64,000 nucleotides of DNA, from positions 13,381-77,380 of the forward strand of contig DAOPYQ010000004.1 of assembly GCA_035352955.1 (NCBI GenBank). Reading direction: 5' to 3'. Under the pieces are notes generated by a model that was given only the letters and a program-made list of their open reading frames with translations, was not told the DNA's origin and made no database searches. The DNA comes from Candidatus Omnitrophota bacterium. GTDB lineage: Bacteria > Omnitrophota > Omnitrophia > Omnitrophales > Aquincolibacteriaceae. Both the position numbers and the translations under genes were made by a program. This document shows, piece by piece, positions 19,566 through 53,870 of this stretch (position 1 is the first letter of the stretch; every line of letters starts with the position of its first letter).

Positions 19566-19567
19566 TT

Positions 19568-20753: not shown

Positions 20754-21395
20754 TTAAGTGATTTCGTCCAGTTTCTGGTCGCCTGTCGCTTGAGGCGGGA
20801 CCCGGACGCGCACCTTGGCGGCCCGAAGTAACCGGTCGTGCAGCATGTACCCGGGTTCAAGTTCGTCCACGATCTGGTCTTCGGCGCCTTCTTCAGTCAC
20901 ATGTCCCACCACTTCGTGGAAATGCGGGTCGAATTTCTGGCCGGCTGTCCCGATTCGCTTGAGACCGTGAACTTTGAGGATATCGAACAACTGTTTTTGG
21001 ACCATCTGCACGCCCGAAATAAGCGTTTTCAGGTTCTGCTGAAGGGCATCTTCCCCCGTCACGGTCGCCGACGCTACCGTTGCGTGATTGATCGCACGCT
21101 CAAAATTATCAAGCACCGGAAGAATCTCCCGGAGGATCCGCTCCTGGCTGAATTTGATGAATTCCTCTTTGTCGCGGGCGTTCCGTTTCTTGGCGTTCTC
21201 AAAATCCGCGGCCGCGTGAAGGAACTTTTCGCGTAAGCCTTCAAGCTCCGCGACCTTCTGCGTCAGGGCTTCGTATTCCTGCTTCGAAACTTCGATCTTA
21301 TCGCCTGCCGGCGCTTCGGAAGGCGCGGAAATCGGCTTGTCGCCCTCCGGTTTTTCATGATGATGATTTTTTTTCGACATGATCAACCTTCCCAT
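20754..21395 (-). CDS. grpE: nucleotide exchange factor GrpE
   Basis: Coiled-coil N-terminal half followed by a GrpE-typical C-terminal beta-sheet domain (EVVGHVTEEGAEDQIVDELEPGYMLHDRLLRAAKVRV). It overlaps hrcA by 13 nt. Confidence 0.9.
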   Translation of the reverse strand: MGRLIMSKKNHHHEKPEGDKPISAPSEAPAGDKIEVSKQEYEALTQKVAELEGLREKFLHAAADFENAKKRNARDKEEFIKFSQERILREILPVLDNFERAINHATVASATVTGEDALQQNLKTLISGVQMVQKQLFDILKVHGLKRIGTAGQKFDPHFHEVVGHVTEEGAEDQIVDELEPGYMLHDRLLRAAKVRVRVPPQATGDQKLDEIT

Positions 21396-22189
21396 TCTAT
21401 TTGTTCGAGAATATCCCCGACCAGGACCGCCATTTGCGAAACCATCGGGATAATCCGGCGATAGGCCATTCTCTTCGGACCCAGGATCGCGATGGCACCG
21501 CTCCCGTGCCGGCCGTCCTGGTAGCGGGCCGTCACGATCGCGCAGTCTTCGAGGGCCTCCTGCCCGTGCTCATGCCCGATCGCGATCGATACGGGACTTT
21601 CCCCGATACGCCGGAGCAAACAATTCGAGAGCGCCTCTTTTTCTTCCAGCGCCCCAAAAAGCGTTTTCACCTTGCGAAGATCCTGGAATTCCGGTTTTTC
21701 CAACATATGGGTCACTCCCTGGAACGACAACTTCGAACGGCTCGCCCGGAGCGGCATCAGCATCAACCCGATCTCTTGCGACATCGAGGAAAGGAGCAGC
21801 GACACGCGATCGAGAAAAAGTTCGACCCCCTCTTCCGGCGTCCCGACCGAAAGTTCCTCGGAGATCTTTTCGCAAGAGCCCCGGGGCATAGGTTCCTCGA
21901 ACGCCGTGTGATCCAGATAATACCGGTAACCGTGGTCCGTCGGAATACGCCCGGCCGACGTGTGCGGGTGCATCAGGTAGCCGACCTCTTCGAGGTAACC
22001 CATTTCATTCCGGACCGTGGCCGGCGAAAAAGAATACGAATACCGCTCGACGATGGCACGCGAGCCGACAGGCTGGCTGGTCTCGATATGCGTCTCAACG
22101 ACACTCTTCAGGATCGATGTTTGTCTCTGGGATAATTGTTCCACCCCGCTAGAGATTGTCCGGACAGGAATTTTTAAGTTTTTATCCAT
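21383..22189 (-). CDS. hrcA: heat-inducible transcription repressor HrcA
   Basis: LSQRQTSILKSVVETHIETSQPVGSRAIVERY...SPATVRNEMGYLEEVGYLMHPHTSAGRIPTDHGYRYYLD is the HrcA winged-helix signature. The C-terminus has GAIAILGPKRMAYRRIIPMV. Confidence 0.85.
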   Translation of the reverse strand: MDKNLKIPVRTISSGVEQLSQRQTSILKSVVETHIETSQPVGSRAIVERYSYSFSPATVRNEMGYLEEVGYLMHPHTSAGRIPTDHGYRYYLDHTAFEEPMPRGSCEKISEELSVGTPEEGVELFLDRVSLLLSSMSQEIGLMLMPLRASRSKLSFQGVTHMLEKPEFQDLRKVKTLFGALEEKEALSNCLLRRIGESPVSIAIGHEHGQEALEDCAIVTARYQDGRHGSGAIAILGPKRMAYRRIIPMVSQMAVLVGDILEQIEWEG

Positions 22190-22367: not shown

Positions 22368-25300
22368 TTATGCCGCCGAAGAAATAACCACGTAGGCGTC
22401 AAAGAGTATTTCAAGAGCGCGGGAAGCATTAAACCCAAGGCGATCCGCAATGAATTGGCGGAGGCTCCCCGTCCTGGAGATGGCCTCATCGAGATAGGAC
22501 GACCAGGATAACTCAACCCCCGCGATAAAATCGCCCTCTTGAAGGCCCTGGAATACCGCTTTGACTTTTTGCCGCAGCCTTTGGGACAACGACTGAAGAT
22601 TGGCCGCCGCATCCCCCGTGAAATAAATGACCTGCGCGTTCCCGGGGATCTGCATGGCATTCGATTCCGTGAACACATGCCCGCCGAAACTCTCCAGCTC
22701 CCGGAGCTTTGCTTCCGTCTTCTTTGAAACCTTCCCGGTGACCACGAGATTCAGCTCTTTTCCGTAAATCCCTTTGAGCGCAAGCAATTCATTCCACCTC
22801 CGGTCGCCTTTGACCGTCCCCAGAACTTCAAGCGACCTTGCATCGATCGCGAAGAACACATTCTGCGACGGCACGCCGTCCATGAACCGGCCTTCGGCCG
22901 CGTTAGCCGGTCCACGCGCAACGCGCAACGTAGAACCTTTTTCTTTCGTTGAGCTTTGCGCGTTGAGCGTTGCGCTGTTTTCCCTCCGCATCTCGGCGCG
23001 AGGGGGCACAACCCCTCCCTCGCGGACGCCGTCCGGTTGATCGGATACCATACCGGTCTTCTCCATTTTTTGGATGTGCGTGGCAAACAATGCCGCGAGT
23101 TCCTGTCTTCCAGTCACTTGACTCACTCGTCCGGCCACGATATCCGCGGCAAATGCCATAATAAAACGTTTGAGATCGTCTTTTTCCTTAAAGAGCGGTG
23201 CATACACATCAAAAAGCGGTTGGGAAGCCGCCGGAAGAAAAACGGAAAAGCTGCCGAGGTGAGAGCCATAATCGCGGCAGTAGATCTCGAAATCAAATTC
23301 GAGGTTTTCCACGTAATGTCCCACCAGTGCCCGTTCAATCTCAAGGGCGGCAAAGAACACCTCGGGGTCATCAAGCTGCCGCACCATTTCAGGGAACCGG
23401 CTGAACAGCAAATGATCGAACATAGGGATGTCGCTGTGCCATTTCAAAAGAGCTCTTACTCTTTCCGGTCTTTTCACAGCGGGACCCTGATTGAGAAACG
23501 GCAAAATGGCGTCGATCGCACCCGAAACGGTCCGGATCATTTCTTCGATTCGCTGATTGCTACTCTCTTCCGGCATAGCCGCGGTGTTTGCCTCAAGATT
23601 CACATCTGCGGGAACGGCAACCTGGTGGAGTGAGTAAGTTATCCCAAGGTCCCCCGCGTCAAAGCCAAGGACCTCATACCGGAAAGCCCGGTCGAACGTA
23701 ATGGCATCTAACGCCCGAAACACTTCGCTCTTTAAATCGGGATATTTTTGACCCGTTTCAATCAGCGCCGGCAAAGCTTCAAATGCATCCGGTCCAAGTT
23801 TTTCCAAATCCGCCACCGCAACCTTCCTCTCAGAAGAATCCCCCTCCCGTAATCGCCGGACAAAAGGGTCGATCGTCGAATATTTATCCACCCCTTGGTC
23901 TTTTCCAGATCTTTCTAATCTCTCCTGCTTTTGGGGAAGACGCTTAAGCCCTTCGCCGTTAACAATCTTAAGCAGCTCGGAAGCCTTCGCCTGAACATCC
24001 TCGGAAGAACTATGGGCCTGACAATCCAGCAAGACAGACATCACTGTTTTCTTTTCCGTATCAATCGCAACCAAAGATTTCAATGCGTTTTCCTGAGCCC
24101 AGCTATCTGCTTTCCTTTTGACCAACCGCATCAGGGACGGAACAGCCCTTTGTGCGCCCGGTCCGATTTCACCCAGAACTTTTGCCGCCATCCTCAGTTC
24201 GACGATACGGTTAAACTGTCGACCGTAGTCCATAACGTCCATATTATCCTCTACCGTTTTGATCAAAAGGTCTACAACCTCGCCTCGTCTCGCATCGTTT
24301 CGGACGAGCCTTACAAGATTATCCCAAGCGGTGTTATCGCGATAAGCTGAATTCAACAGCAAAGAAAGCACTTTAGGCATCTCCACACCGCGAGCGCCCA
24401 ACACTTTGGCCGCGCCAAGTCTGCCTGAAAGATCCGCGTTCTTATCCTCCATCGCCCGAATCAGTGCAGACGTCAGCCGGGGATCCGCAAGATAAGCATC
24501 ATCCAAAACAGCGATAAATTCAAAATTTCCCCGTTGAATTTCCGTCTGGATCATCGGAAGCGCCATTTCTCCCATTCGCCGCAAAGCCTTCGCAAGTTTT
24601 TCACGGTTTTGAAGATCGCCCCTCCGAGCCATTGATTGATAAGCGCGGATCCAACCTTTGATCAATCGGTTCTTGTCGATGGCATCACGTTTCTCCGCAC
24701 GAAATTCATTCTGAGCGTTCGCGACAAGCACCCCCGCCGAAAGAACGACCCCCCTCACGGAATCTGGCATGCTGAACCAATCGGGGACCCGGATCCTGGC
24801 TGTAGTCCTGTCAAAGAGAAAACCCTTCCGGTCACTGCCCGGAACATCTACCGGAACGACACCCTCTCCCATCCTGGCGTACACATCCTTCACGCCCTGG
24901 TTCTTTTCCGAAGGCATGTAATACCCGACCGCTTTGCCAAGCTTTCCAACCACATAGGCCATAAAAAGGTTTTCAACCTTTCCTCCCATCCCTCCGACCC
25001 ACGCGCGACAGCTCTGGCAAAAACTTTCAATGACAGGCACCGGCCCGTTGCAATCGACCACCATCACGGCCACGATCCCCTGATCGCCTTCCCGGTCCTT
25101 CTGCTGCAGTGAAAAGACTCGGTAAGTCCCGTGCTCTCCGGACAACCGGTCCACGAGATCTTCGCGCGTAAAAGTTCTTCCGGTCATATTAAAACGGTTC
25201 GCGCGCTCGAAAAGCTCGACGACCCGATCGATCCTCGACGAAGCCGGGGTCTCTTCAAAGATCTCAACGGCCATGCCAAGTCCGCGCAGATAATCGTTAA

Positions 25301-52300: not shown

Positions 52301-53870
52301 CCGTCATGAGCTTGTTGTAATAACCTTCGTGGCGGAGGCTGGGCTTCGTGATCTTCGGACTGACGACCCCATACGAGATCCCCTTGGATTCGAGAATGCG
52401 TTTGATGTTCTCCTTGTGGAAACCGCCGTAGATCAAAATTGCCGGCAGCAATTTTGAGTCCGACGTTCGACGCGCAACGGCCGACGTATCGTTGCGCGTT
52501 GTGCGTTGCGCGTTGCCCGAGAGAAAATATTCATCCAGCCTTTTCGAAATCGCTCCATCGCGCTCCGCCGCGATCTCATAGAATTTCACCGCTTCCCGGA
52601 TATTCCGTTCCCATTGCCGGGAAAGAACAATCGGCTTTTTCACGTTCGCATGAATAAATTCGCCCAACGACCGGGTATTGAATGTCCTGAGCGCCTGCCG
52701 GACCACCTCGTACTCCTCTTGCGAGACCTGAAGATCGCTGAGGCGTCCGAGAAGACAAAGAGTCTTGTAATGCCCGAAAAGTTCTTTATCACCCGCCCCG
52801 GCAAGATACGCCTCCGCAAGAGACTCATCCAACTTCGAAAGTTCGGCAAAAACCTCCCGTGCATCGATATGCTTCGCTTTTTCGATGACGACAGGATCGT
52901 TTGTTTTAACAGCCTCGAGAATGAAGCTCACCAGGGGCACCGTCGCCCCGGACAACCCCCGGAGTTTGACTTGGGACCCCTGAGATCGATGGCCAGGTGT
53001 TGATCCGGGCGAAAGCAACATTGTTCTGCTTAGATAAGTGAACAGATCCAGTTTCTTCGCATCGAACTGCTCCCTTAGCCTGAGCCATTCGCGGAATTCC
53101 TTCGGAAAGCGCGCATCCGTGAGCAAGCGGACCTCTTTTTCAAGGGCCCTCAGGTCTTTTGCGATCGCCTCTTTCTTCTCCGCGGAGAACCGGTACTGGT
53201 CGACGTTCTCTTTGTGGAGTTTCAGACTGTCCGCACCGATAAGCGTCCAATCAGGATATCGGATGCCGGATGTCGGATGTCGAAAAGCCGGGCTGTCGTC
53301 ATCCGTCATCCTATATCCGTCATCCGTTTTTCTGTTAATGTGCGCATATTCGGCGCCGCCGATGCGGAGATGATCGAGAAAAAAATAGGAGACCTTGCGC
53401 TTCAACTCGGGATCTTTGATGAAACCGAAAAATTCCCCGGTGGGAACCGGACCTTCATAACCTTCCTCAAAAACCGTTCGAACTCCATAGTTCTCAGTCA
53501 GATGTTTGATGATCTTCGCGATGCTCTCCTGGGCTTCAAGAGAGTCGTGCGCGTCCTGAACGTAAATTACGGCAGGGAGATCAGAATTCGGGGTTCGGAG
53601 TGTTGTCTTTGCGCTGTGTGTTTCGCGCTGAGCTCGGTAAACTTCGCTTATCGTGCCAAGTTCGGGAGGGAGCCAGCGGCTTTCATCGATCAGGGGTTGG
53701 CCGGAAAGCGCGGTTGGCTTTTCCCCTCCCGGAACTATGGATTTTATCGGAGTATTAGCAAGCGCTTGCGACGGAAATGAGCAGATCTCGGAAAAAAGAA
53801 AGAGCACCGCAACGAGCATTGCGATGCTCCGGATCGCCGTCCCTTTTTTCGATAAAAATAGCCTGTTCAA
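22368..53870 (-). CDS. giant (10,500 aa) signal-peptide-bearing multi-enzyme protein / candidate polyprotein: M50-like HExxH membrane module followed by about 20 enzyme and signalling domains punctuated by RAE[LM]R motifs
   Basis: A 31.5 kb uninterrupted ORF. TTG start at 53870. MNRLFLSKKGTAIRSIAMLVAVLFLFSEICSFPSQALA is a canonical signal peptide. Individual domains are listed as separate features. Confidence 0.85.
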   Translation of the reverse strand: MNRLFLSKKGTAIRSIAMLVAVLFLFSEICSFPSQALANTPIKSIVPGGEKPTALSGQPLIDESRWLPPELGTISEVYRAQRETHSAKTTLRTPNSDLPAVIYVQDAHDSLEAQESIAKIIKHLTENYGVRTVFEEGYEGPVPTGEFFGFIKDPELKRKVSYFFLDHLRIGGAEYAHINRKTDDGYRMTDDDSPAFRHPTSGIRYPDWTLIGADSLKLHKENVDQYRFSAEKKEAIAKDLRALEKEVRLLTDARFPKEFREWLRLREQFDAKKLDLFTYLSRTMLLSPGSTPGHRSQGSQVKLRGLSGATVPLVSFILEAVKTNDPVVIEKAKHIDAREVFAELSKLDESLAEAYLAGAGDKELFGHYKTLCLLGRLSDLQVSQEEYEVVRQALRTFNTRSLGEFIHANVKKPIVLSRQWERNIREAVKFYEIAAERDGAISKRLDEYFLSGNAQRTTRNDTSAVARRTSDSKLLPAILIYGGFHKENIKRILESKGISYGVVSPKITKPSLRHEGYYNKLMTEGFLSFEKPFVSVLATAARVLPVFHPSLNGRAEVRAVYEALRVHPGTDLGTLDRLLGKGAPSVVVKKSRAELRETKDVTSVAKDVPEKGNWLKEQWKRFVFRWTSAEGFGYYRKFSGLWYVVGAGLFLGSSGIAAGLIAWILYEGIEYGFHRVGMKGEMEPAPRKPAFGAALREKAKNVGKKFSEMGGVPVAVFLGLGAAMVFAGDVPGGILQTLSKLSFFLAVREGFGIMTGSLLSRRVILTAKGFKGRSDIGKYLVNYFDLLLIGAFVSMPWVAAILISIYVHEIFHYLTARYLNAISWPEIPLKNLKIDWLGWQVKFTESSATGIPQRWFLGISSAGTLGNLFVAAGALVVMAFDPGSLWAGLFLKYNLWYAAGQFLFLNNDFGRVNLLELRGRYLSEWFEPRMPRLGKVLHVRVAPVRERVNADSFLLETSTGRYWLIKTRYARGAANGIDGFEYQTADEADFKGESYSLFEIVQAPGGLLSQLNDPFRGMKPETKGDSSFSGNIRRAELRTDDGEFRPNELRLVDPKAGLRRVLIVEDRENIRELLKTTLTAEERTVVMAVNGNEAMEYFEKNSGNPDRLFDLVITDTDMPLMNGDVLIRQLRERFKFRGPILWYSGEPAKREKEGTVVRVARGKFHWHYELSPSFQYPNTLMVHRAFGAGSEKYFADQLVGVIVSSLKTGARVSKADLPPDGVSSTDASHTEQLLKAAIAGDTAAGCFLAELAVRHEGTFYQDVLNFLFQGGLLAGMSPEARDILREFFEGMIGALAPDVLTPDRMSAFRQLIDGGAAQPSDPSEKTFQRILRFATSINPHCDRVALRKLFAQNRELMKRDSEGELRVKHVREWLETLEEEEEFISLYGIRVVGEREEETLEKHPLLNVLRERFGLRTARMKVRKMVYNDGERHFPYGVYEEALEVPKDAEDFVALYLEAGHARTLRALFPGELTFKDEVERNVSILGEIRPDSKPGNKEIGFEHLKELGLDFPPGIVLSAELVCAIVSSAKEERDLSKSPYIALIEEQLAKAGIGPNDSLMVRSNPKVSMPGVLTSLPVNWRERLIDAILAAAKAWDTDAARDYRQWAGIPHRYDLPLIIQRLERGFDYASARKGKTLRNFAGAFTTRDPKDGRDGIVGRFEANVMGEHLMTEGGEGRDIRELATAAPKIYRQILDAKAKIDGWLRPRKGSKKGRLLPPQELEFTVVDGKLWFLQMRNMKFSIYGEIAHLEEDMAEGRITETLAIPRIEALQARLGQRKIYKVRAGAQVRPLARALTSNSGAFRGPLVFDPARIPELVAKKKPFVWFALKKNIKSSTKNTDLLIGLLGYPSFALVTEYGNGSSHEAVLTRSVGIASLINLRRAKVVEEGSRVSLELEGGVVLHEGDPVIVDGDHDRLLSGPADALEESGVELKASYGIHIPSFRKKFLKPYLTAEGQVRAGLTGEEVKALHDKAMARCRDLKKGKDAKAAYIANLEQHFLHDLLTRMLPEEEASRKTGVAAPSGATEVPAGIRAAELADLLEKVAESGEGFSAEGWTLLEKNIAAALGLDEASAGAMIESIMNPLIPPASPQKIGQLFDPDFVPGTFMVGERLHRPPFLAASDNQNLRKWVGIQIAAELVRWRKAADKESDPAERLRYNKILEFVGDKEREWGIPLGDAVFLLLFLRDGSGKRFMDMIPAQIYQDVFTRAMSKLTSHHTYNSPYSDKDFNEKIGKVIETILPRMENLSIEQLFRYSIAAGALGLDLKSSSSAASITNTTNIIPYYVPGESDRARSERILRVLGEKAARPLAIDFWPDFEAQFIKSKTPKTLVVFHDDYGEAQLDLLFILKMLQENPLLKVISVPRHAVAGWIRVGNDAHDMDFINKFLTMPSLAPLSRIMAEEGRYQISRSGPLWGAVNGREFSEEVADLVLNSDAILVQGARSYETLQGINKTAYFAFMVCREFSESVTGVDAFTGDSVFIKQNPGLLSFQGFRERHTRSIPLAGPGRRGWAASMTATEYARAVRSPAYPKIVGRFRGDELAADHWIKQEASKSGKTIAQFILKGAIRAELRSEEKVENAKGAEAFKLRITDAQINEVLENKYAFRYLPPSQKEKMRRLIRQIPQIPVRVRDYLYDGGQFGDYGLKVQKVAEGALAAASGPGKTVPLSDYLEAYVDQMVARGFRLVRIEATGSWTSGPRDPGDIDFRLEFEHPNVKFFSSTLHADLVPEAYPEGVAKNLRVNRMELLVSTPSEKYDPAIEDSVTLFGPVSHLDPKKADVERVLVHAKHLFETRTRREKYSDEIGQGGVGGFFDDEFLVRYLTRGAFLLHTTFPDKDFAARANRLLNDLNRYYDMTGREKSIPTGKRLFESVRSQIGALEQSVSLAIAELEKARVVPVEGERGYQREQLPVVDPATRTSVAVEERAIVHREGLWHESLQGFIFRKSPEGRLQVLRRQRSQSVHLGKGRFDLSVQALYQPKDRGSFEKVLRRALKEQYGLEDGGFQFMQIRTAGWLRTHSRYKEDPSIHSRQFASLGAIFLTPEAEKNLRVTDPRVGSIDWVDWEDYVGDARNRPEVYFNDALFYALNPAFSEEVVRTVRAFGHGEKVEAFSFKTVTYYNLAGRYDVYVFLNMDDSVVVSTYDRETHTTAVYDRVRAFDVDDRDGGLKIRITREDGGNFLWENGRLTPTGRKADAASLVAMNGILERFNKELEAMRAVAESEDMAKFEAIRKKFNHNLRTLRSRIEAGDVLLPSAPLRTSAKDPAANSGSRPGDQVIVALPGTFELPHLDHIDALLDALVFASEKDRGHPKTYVAVLVPMGDHGKGPSGNPTQLPFKHREAMSRRLTDIFSPLMQTVLTAEEMPGRTSVDAAVEVAELNRATAPEKKTSTSLIVVAGAKTFLKWRKEFDEALRNFTGKFQKGAATLFIRSGAGDEIPAESLKKLPYEVHLNDTRFHAGLRSLEMRTHYDFTFVTPGVRDYLDTHLGEFSRFFRFSSTPFKFQIDPKLVERSLAQNYAFRYWSPERRHKVREVVRHIPEIPVEVRPHLWVNEDFGDVFKKAQKATEDSLYAKASQVAPGNETRYVSLSRYMEAFVHEMQERGFRMVRLEAFGSWVGRARVPSDFDLILEFRHPSSKLFQGNLKARLLPELFPDALPAYHKPFQMDLFIMAGNSEFHPAIMDSVTLMGEPSAAEPTALETNDVLKYADFLYNRRMLERSFGVAIDGDHMDFFEDDYIARYLTRSAYILQSFFPDRGFSERANRLLDMLDGFFDFKGDPGARTKLGREIQGYMEALGKDVGAALDELRARSERKESRAELRRQEPYKDPVFAMSRTRDVGQGIRGPSHGEMLLKSLGSDQLQADIAKAFEGWTPDEIRRLFDEYQLGELRAISFFTHNEKTLPVLETSKGKFCIKPITDLDPVGKETQMLFVAEVIHRNLQRGVPIPVIYRSGEKDAEHLIFRIKGGSVDAVRYFMVERWIAGYRSIKREEATPEMMGEVARWLARIHSATAGVRETEWPKLNRWVRDHAFDDMENSRRIFRENIRKNYPPEDSALILSLLDEAFPKVREALRKISRQPINSDINFANLFFDDAGKIREIIDWEASRFGYRIEDFTGLLFRSGRGGAKAYVHGTAEELLRALKAYQKEAGTSRLSDEELDILPWFFLVDFLDTLYFRDRGGVFGEGQRSPSVQASVMQTIRRIQKDFAPYFSGGRSLSQDLRRAELRSRGGFAVFEDGRPVILKIYSAKDGKTVFATKDYKEYFGKVYTDVADFLRDRKIDQAKAGEVIRSDQQSIVIGIPSAYSGGTEEETKAYAKKRVAFFETVLNSLKILRRESAKQEKNWNAELVINVNGLEQGAYLAAVLQFQKERSTSEIPVTVIHMPLAGRLHGREYVEIFGRQVFDPRVVSVATRIQDALNGFWEKRHDPRRIEWVKKYREIFSGKTNAVNAIVEYARDNAKATILGLMDDDIGISDKNILSNVLFLIDSAKGNNAMKRVSPVMTTSRGQLGPSQSEWDEKWWPERNRAPMGPSMFSFLFAFPPLPSYPINEDVYLGRIYYEDESVPRAMCGWRVIENPSGDAVFRWSAATNFRSGYIQNYRYELGDRWLTSLRGKEKQKYRPAHYGPGAIFGFWKSRAVRDPVSGKIRVGETYRKYKDFFWNRQIRINYQVFFELLFRRIFHLPLLTTHWATTVPAESKTVAPDGVREGGVVTPRAEMRNGDVRIQEEILEQAEVIVWDFDNTIFGVEEVWEAMEAQIIAKIWVKNASEMITGELLAEARRFFQESLGISDEQRFTLAAQRVSSSLDEAATIGKKYATEYFLVQDAYVQKRLAEWKTNMEQYLIPGALENLDEYHRRGIKQYLLSGNHYLTRKILDELGLSKYFVNLINAREWPYSGEFSKATALERLSEENQNPTMMVIGDGLGEIKAAQKVAAGRQRRIYTVALLRPKTEKEMQKLQPSVLLSGSFPNAYDLANQLNLRRNFDLPKSEGSAGTVPGTPGTLTRARAKEARAEIRLGERAREEAVAVLNKALGDARDEQEVARKAGKEKSVAYIQITVNEIQEALTGLAAPGNVNEAVMRTVKTYVPDLEVEKFDLVSSEALRLIREGNPALGLKPNPDRARHMIRAERFFRALATGNTEYFVRRLASGTSDADKEGYRQNLRRLKAYFETFTPAERTEMWLEIKLHDTGYTSGATDAGHEERGGIFAEQFIRGELSLPSARAEAVSRLIRRHMSVGLLSLGELRYQKFMEGLDEKGFLKLVLHNIVDASAVLSDSMVYYPARLATVVGWFDPKTRQQSLEVYDQYRFEKLAKTSGNSEKDLTPGEILSLNAMIRKIFGQEEEMLRKQWRDAIDMRYRLVSVPTRLVKYDASYKRFAKWMRLLAHVSLLVPGGETVFTGNLLSREYPPLEIEDAMERIAIKVAADMDRIPEDSDLTAVQAQFRELPENKRVEIYGIPFVRNGNEVLIDVASLFDEVGPQAVRAELRSEPGDDVQAMASKLKGLPTLYANFPKAHNFNQRWHQEGRYLQDHIGAMLKALRKIEGPHFRDPRVPWQAIIFIRRLANENRARIEAACFGHDIGKVTKYQAKKMAVGDIEQSYSFHEHENDSYEVLSKNPVRYGDLDISGDSVLLLSIKHHALGYSLEKLDGLVAFVRDLRRAGITEQKEIERACEFLIALATLDMMGSYLDAEGRDLDMTGISRLIGTYERYVKTEVDPAVLAQADRINFKAQHFSRSMAQVLPAARKKVEAGILRNLLPAITDFYNSGRWKKYRNPGEELIQRVEGSGDLMRALRETHFFDSPEFLFGVVRRHFLSPRPVLEKGRMPRNRFAHKTIGFAPLPGSPEGEDLEKGRDFMEDAVSAVTEHFSDGKVELPGVKMNRFQYAVLRTYRMFGPTVIGHILYTGLVPLGIVVMTYLGLHLFGVSMGHESIGAEFLVGVGMTRFIFNALEKKVEQFGEDWEKHSREQILISLALGVTAEKKRQNGEKYEIYFRDIKELYLAGSASVTPSSKKLDLELLEEIKTVVWKGLDLNEKYFLAAREGYQLALQGGGVDLRAITVAMLAEIASHNRPYFDRLTADWTRESRRNYFQHILASVLGREHEAFHPELSAALMPLASFAKVMTSQDALDELVENEIVAEVTAGTLVPELIGERQVLPPRIVDAKKTSFLTDRRPEYNERFIKRLISKIRSAPNSEDRQAFILAYSSKLLSRLTSIEERIAQDLPVEKDKLERLLLKTELWADGLREFQAGPEADQRIERVTRVLNSLAASLSSERGRAELRSGTWDEVKGAFSERLRQLPPRGVLLVAGPSATGKSWMLNEFDALMAAQGRKIEWVPEDRYFKPEAECPLRNGKPDFDHIDAYDLAAVARTVQKFHEDGTAVIPASTFGKPEPAREPVLGSKDVIGVEGLHTLHPKLTAAVASDVPVLKVYLDTPWQIRFMRRLWRDVTERQFKDPFRTLALWDNVAAGEKDFVEPTKANADFVIRRGSDEEARELGVKTREFREALSKRPEVLARKDYQEVLSSLEDYLKTLLVVRAELRSEGVVSEGLQDRAKLESSMRQVMNYVAAYPFRAFPFSSMVKVGGMVVDQNGKGVSLAVNGLGQQHAERMAIVDALDKIFQARQTAGVRFEDAEKIKTTIDYLRFSLKISRYFPEADLPLFTWVNDRLGDPMGSMTLFVTMAPCEWCEKLIMSAGIKNVVYGYSAQRAAGREPNQRLIDNGIRVTGGILFNELYAQNRLAHLFASRASVIYTAVKSLQHHFHARYVRFLFGEQFDALTRKLRNFDRPDRAELRSGFVKSGGAWWQRWRDAFVRGEQDKMEVIARIHREKILKIYGDALAAVRGASHGAAATAHLQKARAFMLTQLDGLLREYRENIAKEGFADISMKVWKLDMASRFRGICEGLRKEDLRVTSEVVEVAKELSPEEAEAVKSFISGISELHFERPVRTILIADDEANFRSDHEAGIRSLGRSEIKTVSVKDGKEMFDYLKEHAGEVDLILSDVSMPLDDLKFRLDEENAARLRGEDFRTVRERWNGNHVALRFRKELGIRTPIIFISGVWLDKEELAGIGNTLPFPKGHVTPQTLALILKPLIEQSENVRAELRNGEEIPGMYLEGRSDIAEAFRRLGVSDEEASKNMERFKDRDLLWGEVVEAADLPFSVLVVAKKMKVRTWRSDSDPRTLCVAVKDGKVTPVFEEKPFRGMVSGLHFYRISTDRIRLFMVRYDRDHKRSLLYAREVVIEKPASRWNALWRKSEKEIVPGPVEFPHKLEKKTGATDWNAEPVPEGESFDPFDFIQGKLQFRFFGQKYALDPGAPVLTPVPLERAERQSNLVNSNTFPPAARDGRRAERRLPYSADVTFQFRPRGIDESDIEAVYLAGSFNDWKAAPEFKMRSGTRKGETEWMITSRLKEGTYEYKYLVKLKNGQELWVSYPDDFLNSERDQTGSQNYFRHVGPTLGWPPREEPIKGSPRKVNASVNLRGISVEKRAELLEAEAKDGKTRIHIGTATLSDGWELPEAEQKGLAPYAAVIAEKINRALVPVSLEYLELPGDMAPTRHFASFEYDYFLVVDKAAEKDVRDFISELSKAARWSGDLGRYVFVHPYNGTEDDLVEQVAEKILRANGPAEGKSIVRVAPGRFWVEQSNLLVSVEEAPAKMLRFPERVDQHPVLTTVKDRLEIPEASMVTEGSWGYVQEGVHSDRIETQTYLIVPAQYEAEVMRYFRTGKTSQERKMEQIAGIVRLLGDREQEKRVQAARAFKQLPETRESLEAIVETFVTMAHFVPPYTGWASSEHFTSHEVIGFFVEVIVGKDRSIVSDKMLNDLVSGLISEDPYVQEISFGILRVFVSGDWERLMRVKRILEPVAEKIVKSGNLRIALATEAISTERSHNVDSWHMLEGPKILVALHRKKIPADLESAVVEAGYYERSESHYSEDKMRLTLVFPAEKTIPVFLCLILGAWSASEDVQSRIFGIDLQGDFKELYGFMKGINPGLDLVAFEKARDQFLEARKKNPVKDEKGRFRLGPSTQYEEYVRYADSFEPRVERVEDHPFLKLLEKFYGIFGCGYVEKERRALQRFEGGWKSVGDDFLVPSGKHDLFIEMMLVLGEEAMENLLRGTGKSVAGMQPMDAEALKRSLSEKGIPGAEVDGSLMAIFRVAQGVNPGLDLKLLYETYTKVKKGMVQPSRAEDGLSTVRSSGEQVYKIDEWEEFYGLLDYSASKVLDTRKDKKVRFTFLHDPSCEALRRDFHVPQAYRVIERECEIDYEVNRHLGHVTEQEMTQVTSEYADFAAFYFAAGDETVRRIVFPPVPEQSLEERLKDLGIQESPDERFTAIYRAAIKINPKLDLKALFELYQIGKSHLRVLEPAEEAGMVVIITQSDSTRLDTPEDDARFLEGLPQGTKKVMEGPFLVFLKEKFGIRNAYLKYYRNIEDWDSTRHYMMGVAVDSLVVPEEFGDLMELYYSADSILLRRILLGEYSDVEAKVDAGVRQLGKGIYQRGMGNKEAGFLIFEKLGLPYPPGIALSAELASVLAGIQYEERPVYDAFIKRQLNRIGIKIHSGGYEDLIVRSNPKRSMPGILESIRTFNNPVSEIQTAAKAWESPKAKVYRKREGIPDAYDLPLIVQKFESGKADPFGQYDGKRARKEPVALCMAGAFSTRDPNTNGAGLFGRYSENADGSELMTNGKLGEDLNALAQVAPEIYTQLVDAAKKLEDVVGPQEVEFVVNHGKLYFVQTRRINFATQAEIAYIREQLAANKITEARAIPQLEKLQERLGSRKLYRVRDVVAAKPVATAPAATPGAMQGHLAWSVDRARELIREGKPVIFVAREKDQDELLALLFEYSRSGLLTLGYGNASSHEAVLSRLSGIPSLINVAGTRLDEQTIVLENGQKLREGDVVVVDGDHQSLFVTGEDVLEENGVALDASYGIHIPEFKQEFLKAYLQTDGSIKPEFTVPRLVELNQQAEEKFKTVQNSPDKKAVFTANLEKHFIHELLGRRKSEPDGVREREAETLRAEMREEQISHQRNPAERLNTALKMAEDIIRDPFVLGKYGIGANEAVVLAQFLTSASYEHPSIGKAVRLIYDHIRDIYIMGASRLVVYAMLTKLRTGGAITEEQYRLIEKPFSLEDSRRDVAGKKIEIRSSEDIDEASSAACWTVQYFDATGRPVLSFGYTAPTIFFNSHDDQRNQLDKAPTEKRYSAGDYSVEPVQNLRKLLETVSSEYDDAAVEGVVLWLYEGNILRRIDDLLSLYDVGTDKYKANLVRVLAEIGTEYTDQLANSLKDKTELQTRDMLAAQVQANSRERGVGDHARGAAKTNKTVASPQVPDSDPARAELRSIASEDVFKAFGAPMPKLVKVVVLDADFTLWGEAVSEVGPEGVRLTEEFLAVQKKVLALKERGILLVISSRNTPKDVEAVFAQRPEMALRRQDLAGIWADDRNKAEHLKEIAEKLHLGLDSFVFLDDSPFERARVRQAFPEVLVPELPASPSEWPRILDDFIPPQSGSLTPEARNRTRLYEDQKRREQGWEVAKSVRQSFNDYLRGLGMAVEIFEETPASSRIDRVVELFERANRFNMTGRTFTREDLVDRLSGEHGTYRVFSLQQKDREGDQGIVAVMVVDCNGPVPVIESFCQSCRAWVGGMGGKVENLFMAYVVGKLGKAVGYYMPSEKNQGVKDVYARMGEGVVPVDVPGSDRKGFLFDRTTARIRVPDWFSMPDSVRGVVLSAGVLVANAQNEFRAEKRDAIDKNRLIKGWIRAYQSMARRGDLQNREKLAKALRRMGEMALPMIQTEIQRGNFEFIAVLDDAYLADPRLTSALIRAMEDKNADLSGRLGAAKVLGARGVEMPKVLSLLLNSAYRDNTAWDNLVRLVRNDARRGEVVDLLIKTVEDNMDVMDYGRQFNRIVELRMAAKVLGEIGPGAQRAVPSLMRLVKRKADSWAQENALKSLVAIDTEKKTVMSVLLDCQAHSSSEDVQAKASELLKIVNGEGLKRLPQKQERLERSGKDQGVDKYSTIDPFVRRLREGDSSERKVAVADLEKLGPDAFEALPALIETGQKYPDLKSEVFRALDAITFDRAFRYEVLGFDAGDLGITYSLHQVAVPADVNLEANTAAMPEESSNQRIEEMIRTVSGAIDAILPFLNQGPAVKRPERVRALLKWHSDIPMFDHLLFSRFPEMVRQLDDPEVFFAALEIERALVGHYVENLEFDFEIYCRDYGSHLGSFSVFLPAASQPLFDVYAPLFKEKDDLKRFIMAFAADIVAGRVSQVTGRQELAALFATHIQKMEKTGMVSDQPDGVREGGVVPPRAEMRRENSATLNAQSSTKEKGSTLRVARGPANAAEGRFMDGVPSQNVFFAIDARSLEVLGTVKGDRRWNELLALKGIYGKELNLVVTGKVSKKTEAKLRELESFGGHVFTESNAMQIPGNAQVIYFTGDAAANLQSLSQRLRQKVKAVFQGLQEGDFIAGVELSWSSYLDEAISRTGSLRQFIADRLGFNASRALEILFDAYVVISSAA
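22981..23040. repeat. about-60-nt intragenic DNA repeat, copy A (encodes PDGVREGGVVPPRAEMRR)
   Basis: tccctccgcatctcggcgcgagggggcacaacccctccctcgcggacgccgtccggttg. It shares a 19-nt exact core ctcgcggacgccgtccggt with copies at 26856 and 39720. Confidence 0.6.
23900..24700 (-). other. HEAT / PBS-lyase-like helical repeats
   Basis: Repeated LxxLLxDxDxxVRxxAxxALGxIG-type units: AAKVLGARGVEMPKVLSLLLNSAYRDN, AAKVLGEIGPGAQRAVPSLMRLVKRKADSWAQENALKSLVAI, VAVADLEKLGPDAFEALPALIETGQ. Confidence 0.45.
25500..25895 (-). other. HAD-superfamily IIIC / FkbH-like phosphatase domain (HAD 2)
   Basis: KVVVLDADFTLWGEAVSEVGPEG...LLVISSRNTPKDVEAVF...DLAGIWADDRNKAEHLKEIAEKLHLGLDSFVFLDDSPFERARV, compared with the FkbH-like consensus LDLDNTLWGG...SKN.E.DV...WxPK..NL..IA..LNLGLDSFVFxDDNP.ER. 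Confidence 0.55.
26856..26912. repeat. intragenic DNA repeat, copy B (encodes PDGVREREAETLRAEMRE)
   Basis: ttcctcccgcatttcggcgcggagggtctcagcctctctctcgcggacgccgtccggttc. Confidence 0.55.
27100..28700 (-). other. pyruvate-phosphate-dikinase-like phosphotransferase module 2 (paralogue of module 1)
   Basis: LGLPYPPGIALSAELASVLAG (28321-28380). VRSNPKRSMPGILES. CMAGAFSTRDPNTNGAGLFGRYSENADGSELMTNG. EFVVNHGKLYFVQTRRINF. GYGNASSHEAVLSRLSGIPSLINV (27301-27360). Confidence 0.6.
28855..29990 (-). repeat. three protein-level copies of an unknown domain of about 180 aa carrying [FY]xxx[IV]NP[GK]LDL
   Basis: YGFMKGINPGLDLVAFEKARDQF (about 29960), IFRVAQGVNPGLDLKLLYETYTK (about 29420) and IYRAAIKINPKLDLKALFELYQI (about 28890). 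Confidence 0.4.
31600..31780 (-). other. CBM48 / AMPK-beta glycogen-binding-domain-like carbohydrate-binding module
   Basis: VYLAGSFNDWKAAPEFKMRSGTRKGETEWMITSRLKEGTYEYKYLVKLKNGQELWVSYPDD, compared with the CBM48 consensus VxLxGSFNNW...GxHxYKFxVDG.W. Confidence 0.55.
32700..33050 (-). other. response-regulator receiver (REC) domain 2
   Basis: RTILIADDEANFRS...VDLILSDVSMPLDD...TPIIFISGVWLDKEE. Confidence 0.5.
33780..34140 (-). other. cytidine/deoxycytidylate-deaminase-like zinc-binding domain
   Basis: HAERMAI (34025-34078) and PCEWCEKLI (33825-33865), that is HAE...PCxxC. The spacing is about 75 aa, longer than canonical, so this is a moderate call. Confidence 0.45.
34400..35000 (-). other. 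uridine-kinase / phosphoribulokinase-like P-loop kinase
   Basis: Walker A LLVAGPSATGKSW (34921-34980) directly after the RAELRS linker. ...DRYFKP...KPDFDHIDAYDL resembles the PRK/Udk family. Confidence 0.5.
36050..36260 (-). other. internal transmembrane helices in the middle of giant 2 (about aa 5860)
   Basis: FGPTVIGHILYTGLVPLGIVVMTYLGLHLFGVSMGHESIGAEFLVGVGMTRFIF. Confidence 0.45.
36800..37300 (-). other. HD-domain phosphohydrolase 2
   Basis: EAACFGHDIGKVTKYQAKK (37080-37175) and later LSIKHHALGYS. Confidence 0.5.
38000..38500 (-). other. HD-domain phosphohydrolase 1
   Basis: EIKLHDTGYTSGATDAGHEERG (38281-38343) shows the H...HD...H/D arrangement. Confidence 0.45.
39050..39690 (-). other. 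HAD-superfamily hydrolase domain 1
   Basis: Motif I VIVWDFDNTIF (DxD) lies immediately after the RAEMRN linker. SGNHYLTRKILDELGL follows, and motif IV is MMVIGDGLGE. Confidence 0.55.
39720..39780. repeat. intragenic DNA repeat, copy C (encodes PDGVREGGVVTPRAEMRN)
   Basis: atccccattccgcatctcggcccggggagtcacaacccctccctcgcggacgccgtccggtg. About 90% identical to copy A over about 55 nt. Confidence 0.6.
41250..42380 (-). other. aminoglycoside-phosphotransferase / choline-kinase-like (protein-kinase fold) domain
   Basis: KFCIKPITDL...FRIKGGSVDAVRYFMVERWIAGY...PINSDINFANLFFDDAGKIREIIDWEASRFGYRIEDF shows a Brenner-type D....N catalytic loop and an IDWE (DFG-equivalent) motif. Confidence 0.5.
43981..44061 (-). 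other. cytidylyltransferase-like (HxGH) nucleotidyltransferase motif
   Basis: QVIVALPGTFELPHLDHIDALLDA, compared with the GTFDxxHxGH signature of the CoaD/NadD/TagD superfamily. Confidence 0.35.
45250..46050 (-). other. Pol-beta-superfamily nucleotidyltransferase module 1 with helical C-domain (KNTase-like)
   Basis: RIEATGSWTSGPRDPGDIDFRLEF (45737-45815) is a GS...D.D minimal NTase motif. A paralogous copy lies at 42988-43078 (RLEAFGSWVGRARVPSDFDLILEF). Both are followed by similar helical domains (DSVTLFGP... / DSVTLMGE... and YLTRGAFLLHTTFPDKDFAARANRLLNDL / YLTRSAYILQSFFPDRGFSERANRLLDML). Confidence 0.55.
48050..49750 (-). other. pyruvate-phosphate-dikinase / PEP-synthase-like phosphotransferase module 1 (ATP-grasp N-domain plus phosphohistidine swivel domain)
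   Basis: VRSNPKVSMPGVLTS matches PPDK VRSGAxxSMPGMMDT. RNFAGAFTTRDPKDGRDGIVGRFEANVMGEHL matches RGxAFxFTRNPxTGE...GEYLxNAQGEDVV. EFTVVDGKLWFLQMRNMK matches DIEFTIExGKLWMLQTR. GNGSSHEAVLTRSVGIASL (48241-48300) matches the PEP-utilising mobile domain GGxTSHAAIxAREL with a presumed phospho-His. Confidence 0.65.
50345..50690 (-). other. response-regulator receiver (REC) domain 1 in giant 2
   Basis: RVLIVEDRENIRELLKTTL...VMAVNGNEAMEYF...LFDLVITDTDMPLMNGDVLIRQLRE. The acidic pair, the phospho-acceptor Asp (ITDTDMP) and the later K are all present. Confidence 0.6.
51150..52000 (-). other. polytopic membrane region with intramembrane HExxH (zinc-metalloprotease-like, S2P/M50-like, tentative) in giant 2
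   Basis: Hydrophobic helices GLWYVVGAGLFLGSSGIAAGLIAWILY, VPVAVFLGLGAAMVFAG, LLLIGAFVSMPWVAAILISIYVHEIFHYL and LGNLFVAAGALVVMAF. The HEIFH codons are at 51435-51449. Confidence 0.4.

Follow-up and report, generated by a model that had tools for sequence, protein, structure and literature searches.

An Omnitrophota gene for a 10,500-residue protein with a conserved head, pentapeptide-separated cassettes and a C-terminal module

Omnitrophota have small genomes in which giant genes take up a large share, and they are suspected predators or epibionts. Nielsen & Lui (2026) describe Omnitrophota giants in which many Pfam families of metabolism and signalling lie side by side after a signal peptide or transmembrane (TM) helices, including 'multi-enzyme metabolic clusters' with REC, HAD and HD domains, kinases, methyltransferases and starch synthase (10.64898/2026.06.07.730766). 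West-Roberts (2023) describes the Omnitrophota 'Archaeovorins', enzyme-rich giant ORFs with divergent domains and a putative peptidase near the signal peptide that is proposed to cut the giant chain up (10.1101/2023.11.21.568195). These giant-protein surveys conclude that function is unresolved (10.64898/2026.06.07.730766; 10.1101/2023.11.21.568195).

The protein described here resembles the Nielsen & Lui class in being an Omnitrophota single ORF of at least 10,000 aa (10,500 aa), in holding many Pfam families with none dominating (about 14 distinct families, each once or twice; BLASTP of the protein against itself finds no internal repeats), in combining REC, HAD and HD domains, kinases or phosphotransferases and HEAT scaffolding, and in having a signal peptide and/or TM helices (here by hydropathy and family pattern). 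It differs from that catalogue as described in its conserved head, punctuating pentapeptide and C-terminal module, and many members of its family have only 800-6,700 aa. No segment matches the SecA DEAD-like helicase or preprotein-binding domains of the Archaeovorins in Pfam at E <= 0.5. With the Archaeovorins it shares the phylum, an enzyme-rich giant ORF and divergent domains, but it is 10,500 aa long against more than 30,000, and Pfam finds none of their glycosyltransferase, glycoside hydrolase, peptidase, SAM-methylase or NUDIX content in it; such content does occur in other head-bearing relatives. The Archaeovorin C39/S8 peptidase near the signal peptide is absent, and the N-terminal domain is TIKI-like instead. 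The preliminary description regarded the fusion of such enzymes behind a signal peptide as not well known; it is not new, because giant multi-enzyme proteins with signal peptides have already been catalogued in Omnitrophota (10.64898/2026.06.07.730766; 10.1101/2023.11.21.568195). Neither Nielsen & Lui (2026) nor West-Roberts (2023) mentions the layout of head, motif-separated cassettes and C-terminal module, which is apparently new. The preliminary description had also passed over this layout.

A further likeness, of logic only, is to the MARTX toxins, in which conserved N- and C-terminal parts surround variable, shuffled enzyme modules and a built-in protease frees the modules at short inter-module sites. 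Processing and delivery are known for MARTX and would be putative for the giant protein here; it has an N-terminal Sec signal rather than a C-terminal type I signal, its motif, protease type and cargo differ, and neither RTX repeats nor the C80 cysteine protease domain has a Pfam match in the 10,500-aa protein.

An intact 31.5-kb gene

The gene lies within a stretch of 64,000 nucleotides (the window), whose positions are used throughout.

22368..53870, (-) strand: whole gene, 10,500 codons plus stop, TTG start (ORF listing)

As the preliminary description held, the 31.5-kb gene is one ORF: ORF listing and translation give a single frame of 10,500 aa with zero internal stops, and the GC content is uniform along it. 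Public gene callers begin at Met18 and so report 10,483 aa. The flanking genes are hrcA-grpE-dnaJ, gpsA, ftsH and uvrA, and the exact DnaJ neighbour was matched on at least 12 public contigs (JGI, ENA, NCBI). Over the final 8,301 nt of the gene, the five public contigs checked match the window at 100% identity, and the 10,483-aa call is present on three long contigs (164, 73 and 213 kb), although some of these public assemblies may re-use the same reads. Because public contigs carry the same locus and the same call, the suspicion of a frameshifted or chimeric assembly fails. There is next to no likelihood that an assembly chimera or decaying pseudogene mimics one ORF: about 75% of the protein is without a Pfam match, as that explanation would allow, but 31.5 kb run without interruption of the frame, that one frame contains the family head, 16 motifs and the family cap, at least three assemblies give the same call, and the supported domains keep their catalytic motifs. 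The gene is real and intact.

Signal peptide, head and C-terminal module

Proteins of this family share a common layout, consisting of a Sec-type signal peptide, a head of about 550 aa, variable cassettes separated by a motif, and a C-terminal module of about 200 aa. The conserved ends lie as follows:

53757..53870, (-) strand: Sec-type signal peptide, aa 1-38; basic start, hydrophobic core and ALA-N, with predicted cleavage
52071..53756, (-) strand: conserved head, aa 39-600; TIKI/TraB/erythromycin-esterase/ChaN-like alpha/beta fold with a helical insert
22371..22985, (-) strand: family-wide C-terminal module, aa 10296-10500; Rossmann-like, HAD/FCP-like fold, ending ...AYVVISSAA-COOH

Sixty homologues align only to aa ~14-600 of the 10,500-aa protein and have unrelated domains downstream. 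The head is encoded at 172 genome loci, with several paralogues per genome, and all of these are in Omnitrophota MAGs except for uncultured-bacterium records and one labelled Planctomycetales; the lineage guessed in the preliminary description is thereby borne out, and judged by these sequences the family appears limited to Omnitrophota. A head profile matches 8,409, 6,885 and 2,879 protein clusters at E <= 1e-3, 1e-10 and 1e-30, respectively, and the head is N-terminal in all 150 profile matches listed. At the other end, the chain terminates in [AS]A in 20 of the 21 complete ORFs from the loci and in 88 of the 106 new representatives.

The signal peptide reads MNRLFLSKKGTAIRS-IAMLVAVLFLFSEICSF-PSQALA and is predicted to be cleaved directly ahead of NTP. 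Both hydropathy and the three-part pattern of basic start, hydrophobic core and AxA-like cleavage site, seen in 138 of the 150 relatives whose N-terminus is complete, agree with the cleavable signal peptide first proposed.

The predicted structure of the head (pTM 0.78) has the alpha/beta, parallel-sheet core of the TIKI/TraB/PrgY/erythromycin-esterase/ChaN superfamily. D106, H108, E136, R437 and H485 do not vary across 60 sequences, and in the model a parallel strand precedes each of D106/H108, E136 and H485, as His, acid and Arg residues stand at parallel-strand ends in the superfamily. RRSP, a MARTX effector that has the TIKI fold in common with the head, uses a 2His/2Glu+Arg set in catalysis with residues E3900/H3902/E3930 (PMC6254334); the spacings of D106/H108/E136 in sequence, 2 and 28, are the same. 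The catalytic-type set of the head would thus be that of the superfamily, 2His/2Glu plus a basic residue, with Asp for the first Glu. The head differs in this Asp, in a helical insert of about 235 aa, in the thousands of cargo residues fused to it and in having no profile-level sequence match to the superfamily (Pfam TraB_PrgY_gumN, Cofac_haem_bdg and Erythro_esteras: no match at E <= 0.5 in aa 1-950). On this model, the head has a TIKI/TraB/erythromycin-esterase-type hydrolase fold and is a putative hydrolase with a complete set of invariant catalytic-type residues. Not all TIKI-fold proteins are proteases: ChaN, for one, binds haem, and PMT lacks activity.

Pentapeptide and cassettes

The cassettes are separated by the pentapeptide R-[AS]-E-(V/L/M/A/I/T)-R, of which a motif scan finds 16 copies in the 10,500-aa protein:

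52197..52211, (-) strand: RAEVR, aa 554
52083..52097, (-) strand: RAELR, aa 592, head end
50757..50771, (-) strand: RAELR, aa 1034, immediately ahead of REC domain 1
46152..46166, (-) strand: RAELR, aa 2569
42420..42434, (-) strand: RAELR, aa 3813
41202..41216, (-) strand: RAELR, aa 4219
39729..39743, (-) strand: RAEMR, aa 4710, within 53-nt linker repeat D1
38838..38852, (-) strand: RAEIR, aa 5007
37425..37439, (-) strand: RAELR, aa 5478, within 41-nt linker repeat D2
35043..35057, (-) strand: RAELR, aa 6272, within 41-nt linker repeat D2
34263..34277, (-) strand: RAELR, aa 6532
33507..33521, (-) strand: RAELR, aa 6784
32574..32588, (-) strand: RAELR, aa 7095
26853..26867, (-) strand: RAEMR, aa 9002, within 53-nt linker repeat D1
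25899..25913, (-) strand: RAELR, aa 9320
22986..23000, (-) strand: RAEMR, aa 10291, starts the C-terminal module, within 53-nt linker repeat D1

The 16 copies compare with 0.65 expected and a maximum of five in 300 shuffles. Across 80 family loci there are 460 copies against 13.8 expected, and 106 further family proteins hold 773 copies in 361,542 aa. As background, neighbouring genes contain 7 copies in 137,119 aa and the window's other genes 1 in 9,064 aa; family-wide, the enrichment is about 40-fold. Codons at the sites vary synonymously, and selection therefore acts on the peptide. Almost all family members have two closely spaced copies directly after the head.

The domains and cassettes between the copies are:

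50421..50699, (-) strand: REC domain 1, aa 1058-1150 (profile match aa 1061-1146, E 9e-12; acceptor Asp present)
48087..49247, (-) strand: PPDK-like ATP-grasp plus phospho-histidine swivel domain, aa 1542-1928 (PDB match E 5e-19; GNGSSHEA)
46506..47066, (-) strand: ARMT1-like damage-control phosphatase, aa 2269-2455 (profile)
42867..43121, (-) strand: nucleotidyltransferase-like, aa 3584-3668 (weak: DUF6932, E 2e-5 to 5e-3; GS...DFD)
41484..42101, (-) strand: APH-type kinase, aa 3924-4129 (profile)
39090..39683, (-) strand: HAD hydrolase, aa 4730-4927 (profile; DFDNT)
37440..38837, (-) strand: cassette without assigned function, aa 5012-5477 (53% identical to a cassette of relative L022)
36957..37208, (-) strand: HD phosphohydrolase, aa 5555-5638 (profile)
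34410..34988, (-) strand: uridine kinase, aa 6295-6487 (profile; P-loop GPSATGKS)
33780..34151, (-) strand: cytidine/dCMP deaminase zinc domain, aa 6574-6697 (profile; HAE...PCEWC)
32868..33041, (-) strand: REC domain 2, aa 6944-7001 (partial profile match E 7e-5, below Pfam cut-off)
31569..31817, (-) strand: CBM48/CBM20-like glucan-binding module, aa 7352-7434 (profile)
27147..28127, (-) strand: second PPDK-like ATP-grasp plus phospho-histidine module, aa 8582-8908 (PDB match E 8e-25; GNASSHEA)
24864..25844, (-) strand: FkbH/HAD-IIIC, aa 9343-9669 (194.5 bits vs cut-off 146.65; PDB 3slr; DADFT)
23970..24194, (-) strand: HEAT repeats, aa 9893-9967 (profile)

None of the 16 motif sites falls inside a Pfam-matched region, and the HAD, uridine kinase, deaminase and APH domains are closely flanked by the motif on both sides. 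In the relatives scanned it never splits two-part enzymes (SNF2 + Helicase_C; GT5 + GT1). Where the 10,500-aa protein and L022 have homologous cassettes, these stop at the motif in each of the two: the cassette at aa 5012-5477 and its L022 counterpart are each motif-bounded, and the APH cassette is homologous to two L022 cassettes.

Domain-by-domain profile searches upheld most of the family calls made from motifs in the preliminary description, namely both PPDK-like His-phosphotransferase modules, the APH-like kinase, the uridine-kinase-like P-loop, the cytidine-deaminase zinc motif, the CBM48-like module, the HEAT repeats and two HAD phosphatases, the second as FkbH/HAD-IIIC; the ARMT1-like phosphatase, absent from that description, and the FkbH assignment were added. 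Other calls stood in part. The first of two REC domains is clear and the second weaker; of two KNTase-like nucleotidyltransferases, one is the weak DUF6932 match and the other was called from GS...DxD at aa 2693 as a motif only; the cytidylyltransferase-like HxGH call likewise comes down to the motif HLGH at aa 8260; and the second of two HD phosphohydrolases finds no profile support. Catalytic motifs of the profile-supported domains are intact in the sequence. In the ~9,600 residues after the membrane cassette (below), uridine kinase adjoins cytidine deaminase as a pyrimidine-salvage pair, and we infer that the cargo here consists of pyrimidine-salvage and phosphotransfer enzymes.

Both dikinase modules resemble PPDK and other PEP-utilising enzymes, including glucan-water dikinases, in joining ATP-grasp to a phospho-His domain in which the catalytic His is retained. 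Unlike PPDK, they come without the PEP/pyruvate-binding TIM barrel (no PEP-utilizers_C match in the 10,500-aa protein), and they score 103-112 bits against the TIGR01828 equivalog cut-off of 843. The second shares one cassette with the CBM48/CBM20-like module, as in plant glucan dikinases, where the dikinase occurs together with a starch/glycogen-binding module.

Nucleotidyltransferase, HD, deaminase and kinase domains recur in defence systems, and an anti-phage defence or immunity mega-protein built of such modules had been one of the readings first offered. Weak matches to dCTP-deaminase models point the same way (PADLOC E 1.7e-6 over 35 residues; NCBIfam antiphage_deaminase, 22 bits vs cut-off 400), but PADLOC yields no defence family beyond this generic zinc-deaminase motif and the flanking genes include no defence-island neighbours. 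To our knowledge, cytoplasmic defence systems have no signal peptide or exported head, and the reading is very unlikely.

Membrane topology and possible processing

Two regions of the protein are candidates for membrane insertion:

51141..51953, (-) strand: membrane cassette, aa 640-910 (hydropathy; S2P (M50)-like at motif level only)
36129..36185, (-) strand: isolated hydrophobic segment, candidate TM helix, aa 5896-5914 (hydropathy; marginal partner aa 5926-5944)

Hydropathy places TM helices in the membrane cassette at about aa 645-665, 709-727, 787-807 and 859-880, with a marginal fifth at aa 885-905 (6.9 on the Hessa scale) and a strongly basic stretch directly after the last. HEIFH follows the third helix, SSAGTLGN opens the fourth and NNDFG follows the fifth, in the order expected of a site-2 protease; Pfam M50 reaches only E 0.25, and a three-sequence profile of the cassette found no M50 structures in the PDB. 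The same motif pattern, with a conserved F-x-P-G turn, occurs in the cassettes of relatives L022 and L031. Head and membrane cassette can be likened to PrgY and Tiki, in which an extracytoplasmic catalytic domain is followed by TM helices. An S2P-like cassette of four or five helices with an intramembrane HExxH after an exported head, together with the segment at aa 5896, means that much or all of the enzyme array of the 10,500-aa protein may face the cytoplasm; the topology comes from hydropathy scales only, and with a helix count of 4, 5, 6 or 7 its parity is uncertain.

The protein might accordingly be a membrane-anchored scaffold facing the cytoplasm, with only the head exported and the five-helix cassette leading the chain back into the cytoplasm. 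An unprocessed tail of ~9,600 aa would then be a tethered array for nucleotide salvage, phosphotransfer and signalling in the cell itself, and the motif would be no more than a linker or hinge signature. An out-in-out-in-out-in path suits the helices at aa 645-905 and would bring HEIFH, AGTLGN and NNDFG together at one face in the manner of site-2 proteases, and the basic stretch beyond them agrees with it, but the fifth helix is marginal and a helix at aa 5896 would alter the parity. The cargo requires ATP or phosphodonors (kinases, dikinases and REC with intact motifs), and inner-membrane-anchored cytoplasmic enzymes are among the hypotheses that survive in Nielsen & Lui (10.64898/2026.06.07.730766). 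Yet in 82-100 of 139 complete relatives no TM helix comes after the signal peptide, which puts head and cargo on one and the same side for most family members; the TM-free relatives scanned carry SNF2 helicase, a radical-SAM enzyme or starch synthase. A scaffold also leaves the 40-fold motif enrichment and the invariant C-terminal Ala unexplained, and we consider it somewhat unlikely.

The reading we prefer, with a probability of roughly 0.45, is that of a modular polyprotein directed to Sec, with processing or hinging at the pentapeptide. The chain would be targeted to the Sec translocon during synthesis, so placing the head outside the cytoplasm, and the pentapeptides would be recognition sites for cleavage of the chain, or at least for hinging, between separate cassettes. 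The head would be the obvious candidate protease, although a head outside and a tail in the cytoplasm would leave it unable to cut most sites in cis. In its logic the protein would resemble autoprocessing polyproteins, MARTX toxins among them, rather than a single rigid enzyme. The motif could alternatively be a docking, hinge or folding signal.

Were a cytoplasmic protease to cut the motif during synthesis, only the head would be exported, and the other cassettes would be ordinary separate enzymes for the cell's own use, remaining cytoplasmic or entering the membrane independently. This would reconcile the signal peptide with ATP-, SAM- and DNA-dependent cargo, and the paired motif copies after the head and the evolution of cassettes as independent units agree with it. 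It is improbable all the same: no such protease was identified, the conserved C-terminal cap is given no role, co-translational Sec targeting would tend to export everything after the head, and the cargo is highly divergent and shuffled among paralogues, unlike housekeeping enzymes.

A secreted effector cocktail delivered to another cell, as first suggested, fits the family with its many TM-free signal-peptide relatives, but secretion is doubtful for this protein with its four or five TM helices and the segment at aa 5896. Against the preferred polyprotein as well, ATP-dependent cargo outside the cell would have no energy source unless another cell is reached; the analysis turned up neither delivery machinery nor a conserved upstream neighbour. 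Nothing specific favours the surface-tethered scavenging factory that had also been suggested.

The processed or hinged polyprotein has a bolder form, possible though on balance doubtful, in which thousands of 'bookended' Omnitrophota polyproteins would have a TIKI-fold head protease that cuts the motif, shuffled enzymes that are freed and an [AS]A cap that sorts or docks, equipping or manipulating a host cell. If true, bacteria would have in this family a genome-wide counterpart to viral polyproteins or MARTX toxins, with the 10,500-aa protein among the largest examples. Should processing be real, the '10,500-aa protein' would be about 15 separate enzymes from one message, and the annotation and counting of such genes would change. 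The layout leads to concrete experiments on a candidate protease, a five-residue candidate site found hundreds of times and a C-terminal signal, and the motif is a simple rule for dividing giant proteins into units for structure prediction and expression. In favour of processing or hinging, small and polar residues are slightly over-represented around the motif, and low-confidence linkers hold two of the three modelled sites; against it, the copy at aa 554 sits in a confidently predicted helix.

The giant gene and its domain content

The giant gene (22368-53870, reverse strand) comprises 10,500 codons from a TTG start in a frame that the ORF listing shows to be uninterrupted, with uniform base composition throughout, in agreement with the single giant ORF of the preliminary description. 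Twelve public contigs (JGI, ENA, NCBI) match the DnaJ neighbour exactly, the last 8,301 nt of the gene are identical to the window in all five contigs compared, and a gene of 10,483 aa is called on three long contigs (164, 73, and 213 kb). Some of these assemblies may have reads in common. As the public contigs agree, the check for frameshifts or chimeric assembly does not refute the ORF, and an artefact is very unlikely. The public calls begin at Met18 (window 53819), and the TTG sits at 53870. A start at Met18 cuts off the basic N-terminal residues of the signal peptide, a feature kept in relatives; because the upstream TTG retains them, the TTG is the more likely start.

Domains were searched against Pfam, NCBIfam, and PDB sequences. 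Most domain calls of the preliminary description are profile-supported, its HxGH motif, second HD, and second nucleotidyltransferase stay at motif level only, and an ARMT1-like phosphatase absent from its list was added.

Domains of the giant protein (residue coordinates; all encoded on the reverse strand)
aa 1058-1150 (-): REC 1, profile-supported
aa 1542-1928 (-): PPDK-like ATP-grasp and phospho-His module 1, profile-supported
aa 2269-2455 (-): ARMT1-like phosphatase, profile-supported
aa 3584-3668 (-): nucleotidyltransferase-like, weak
aa 3924-4129 (-): APH kinase, profile-supported
aa 4730-4927 (-): HAD hydrolase, profile-supported
aa 5555-5638 (-): HD, profile-supported
aa 6295-6487 (-): uridine kinase, profile-supported
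aa 6574-6697 (-): cytidine deaminase, profile-supported
aa 6944-7001 (-): REC 2, partial match
aa 7352-7434 (-): CBM48/CBM20, profile-supported
aa 8582-8908 (-): PPDK-like module 2, profile-supported
aa 9343-9669 (-): FkbH / HAD-IIIC, above the NCBIfam cut-off
aa 9893-9967 (-): HEAT repeats, profile-supported

Roughly three quarters of the protein has no Pfam match. Catalytic motifs are intact in the HAD (DFDNT), HD (GHD), uridine kinase (GPSATGKS), and deaminase (HAE...PCEWC) domains, the REC domains retain the acceptor Asp, and both dikinase modules retain the SSHEA histidine. Uridine kinase adjoins cytidine deaminase; the phosphatase cargo (HD, HAD, FkbH, ARMT1-like) is accompanied by the APH kinase and two receiver domains; and the two ATP-to-His dikinase modules lack the pyruvate-binding barrel, one of them sharing its cassette with the glucan-binding module. 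This content points to nucleoside and nucleotide handling and phosphotransfer as the probable business of the cargo. With the protein as BLASTP query, no internal repeats were found at E 1e-3, nor any match to the second giant ORF of the window, and a repeat-scaffold reading was ruled out on the empty self-comparison.

Head, punctuating motif, and cap

A homology query with aa 1-1000 matched 60 proteins, all named ones being labelled Omnitrophota or Omnitrophica, which align to aa ~14-600 only and diverge completely beyond. This conserved N-terminal part of ~550 residues (aa 39-600) is here called the head. A scan that took one genome from each species located it at 172 loci, and genomes carry several paralogues each. 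The head-bearing ORF extends past the fetched DNA in 58 of 80 fetched loci, and complete ORFs measure 1,062-3,790 aa. A head profile run against 1.84 billion cluster representatives retrieved 8,409 proteins at E <= 1e-3 and 2,879 at E <= 1e-30; among the matches listed, the head is N-terminal in 150 of 150, in proteins of up to 6,726 aa. A Sec signal-peptide pattern (basic/hydrophobic/AxA) is present in 138 of 150 complete N-termini.

The head has no match among the Pfam models. Its AlphaFold model (pLDDT 79, pTM 0.78) places D106/H108, E136, and H485 each directly after a parallel strand, and D106-x-H108, E136, R437, and H485 do not vary in 60 sequences. The spacing is that of E3900-x-H3902 ... 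28 residues ... E3930 in RRSP, a MARTX effector with a TIKI fold, in which peptide cleavage needs a 2His/2Glu set and a nearby Arg (PMC6254334). The head is a distant, unannotated branch of the TIKI/TraB/erythromycin-esterase superfamily.

The protein is punctuated by the pentapeptide R-[AS]-E-(V/L/M/A/I/T)-R, present in 16 copies (all RAE[LMVI]R) against 0.65 expected from shuffles. The 80 loci hold 460 copies against 13.8 expected, and 106 further family proteins hold 773 in 361,542 aa; the background is seven in 137,119 aa of neighbouring non-family genes and one in 9,064 aa of the rest of the window, including the other giant ORF. Copies lie directly before REC1, HAD, uridine kinase, FkbH, and the C-terminal module, and directly after APH, HAD, uridine kinase, deaminase, REC2, and the second dikinase, and none of the 16 falls within a Pfam-matched region. 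In relatives, the halves of the SNF2 helicase are kept in one cassette (the stretch between motif copies), as are those of the starch synthase. Only one fetched locus, L022 of another genome, has downstream similarity to the giant protein, and the cassettes common to both stop at a motif in each (aa 5007-5478 vs 1815-2280); the APH cassette likewise ends at a motif in both. A search of the literature for the pentapeptide returned only unrelated alginate-lyase papers.

Codons differ synonymously across the 16 sites, so the peptide and not the DNA is conserved, and a DNA repeat was rejected as the general explanation. Small and polar residues are slightly over-represented in the motif flanks. 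DNA repeats of 41-53 nt are common to five of the 16 linkers around the motif, which suggests that linkers may be sites of cassette duplication or exchange by recombination. The 53-nt repeat, which encodes PDGVRE...PRAEMR, has three copies with 83-92% identity (22985-23037, 26852-26904, and 39728-39780), and the 41-nt repeat has two (35018-35058 and 37400-37440). Head-bearing ORFs of relatives also carry tight tandem motif copies, e.g. ERSELRSEVRSELRT, or three copies spaced by 20 aa within a repeated linker (L056 ~aa 3598-3610; L053 ~aa 2090-2134; L051 ~aa 2283-2296), and these look like redundant sites.

The ~200-aa C-terminal module, the cap, opens with a motif copy and ends in ...hydrophobic-x-x-[AS]A (AYVVISSAA in the giant protein), an ending found in 20 of 21 complete locus ORFs, 32 of the first 60 matches, and 88 of 106 new representatives. 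The shortest members (~800-1,000 aa) consist of head, short middle section, and cap. A profile search with this module against a word-indexed database returned two short proteins only. Head, 16 in-frame motifs, and cap in one frame are further evidence that the 10,500-aa ORF is complete.

Topology and possible processing

The signal peptide is predicted by both hydropathy scales used, as are helices at ~aa 645-665, 709-727, 787-807, 859-880, and 5896-5914; marginal hydrophobic segments lie at aa 885-905 and 5926-5944. HEIFHYLTAR ends the third helix, SSAGTLGN starts the fourth, and NNDFG ends the marginal fifth, an order similar to the site-2 protease (S2P, M50) signature. L022 and L031, both relatives from other genomes, have cassettes with this order and a conserved F-x-P-G hairpin turn. 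There (L022 ~aa 1015-1160, L031 ~aa 2775-2935), HExGH ends a TM helix, SGP lies in the next helix, F-x-P-G follows, and SDG comes after the following helix. Their positions differ between family members, and the S2P-like modules seem to behave as mobile cassettes. Pfam M50 matched the membrane cassette at E 0.25, a phmmer search of family proteins with aa 770-930 reached at best E 0.46 (L031), and a 3-sequence profile found no M50 structure among PDB sequences; S2P membership is at most putative, and the resemblance is kept at motif level.

If the five-helix reading holds, the tail of the giant protein would be cytoplasmic. An unprocessed, membrane-tethered scaffold with its enzymes facing the cytoplasm is a rather unlikely reading, and a polyprotein cleaved in the cytoplasm to serve the producer cell is distinctly improbable. 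Across the family, 82-100 of 139 complete members are free of TM helices beyond the signal peptide, and in those TM-free members that were scanned the cargo includes an SNF2 helicase, a radical-SAM enzyme, or a starch synthase. Since most complete members lack a later TM helix, the head is predicted to share its side of the membrane with the cargo in most of the family. TM parity was discarded as a topology rule, even and odd counts being about equal among relatives with TM helices.

Family membership, the layout, the intact active sites, and the head's fold and residue set are regarded as established. The preferred reading of the mechanism is that the chain would be targeted to the Sec translocon, the head would be a protease, the motif would be its recognition site for cassette separation, and the cap would act as a terminal signal or docking element. 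The nearest analogue in logic is the MARTX toxin, but the MARTX-defining domains are all absent. A role in defence, one of the readings in the preliminary description, is not supported and was rejected, as PADLOC yields essentially nothing; the observation in that description stands, and its interpretation holds in part only.

Its claim that cytoplasmic-type enzymes fused behind a signal peptide are new does not hold, because surveys of the phylum describe such proteins. Giant Omnitrophota genes were described by West-Roberts et al. (2023; 10.1101/2023.11.21.568195), whose Archaeovorins abound in glycosyltransferases, methylases, NUDIX, and peptidases; SecA-like domains are usual in them, and a C39 or S8 peptidase is often located close to the signal peptide. 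Nielsen and Lui (2026; 10.64898/2026.06.07.730766) list 916 Omnitrophota proteins of >= 10,000 aa, one class being a 'multi-enzyme metabolic cluster', with recurrent REC, HAD, HD, kinases, starch synthase, and radical-SAM, and a signal peptide or TM helices in 94%; their candidate functions are exported effectors, exported CAZymes, membrane-anchored cytoplasmic enzymes, and mobile passengers, and Seymour et al. (2023) take the same view of giant ORFs generally. The giant protein is a member of this described kind. It belongs to a distinct, very large sub-family, whose layout of head, pentapeptide, and cap is mentioned in none of the three papers and appears to be undescribed in the literature searched. 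This layout makes the question of what Omnitrophota giant proteins do directly testable.

Genomic neighbourhood

Clustering of 411 upstream ORFs from the family loci gave no ORF family in more than eight loci, and a conserved operon partner was rejected; no conserved neighbour indicates a partner gene, and only further family members, arranged in tandem, recur as neighbours. Such a member lies directly upstream in at least seven other genomes (L074, L063, L022, L070, L036, L034, L073). These upstream members have many motif copies and the [AS]A ending, and the family appears to be sometimes, or even often, in tandem arrays.

Downstream of the giant gene are hrcA-grpE-dnaJ, gpsA, and a FadL-type outer-membrane protein gene, and upstream are a gene for a 459-aa protein without assigned family, ftsH, and uvrA, all ordinary chromosomal genes of a diderm bacterium. 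The position between the heat-shock operon hrcA-grpE-dnaJ (17872-22189, reverse strand) and the membrane protease gene ftsH (55602-57269, reverse strand) is probably fortuitous, as the family loci share no conserved neighbour. Two upstream ORFs (61223-63979, reverse strand, 918 aa; 54212-55591, reverse strand, 459 aa) have no significant Pfam match, only weak ones to DUF2490 and DHHA2 / N-formyltransferase C-terminal models.

In the second giant ORF (2123-15703, reverse strand, 4,526 aa), a hydrophobic segment at the N-terminus is accompanied by a right-handed beta-helix, RHS repeats, and a glucoamylase-like stretch, and two TM helices lie late in the chain. This ORF lacks the head and has no copy of R-[AS]-E-x-R in its 4,526 aa, and so appears to belong to a separate adhesin- or toxin-like class in the same genome.
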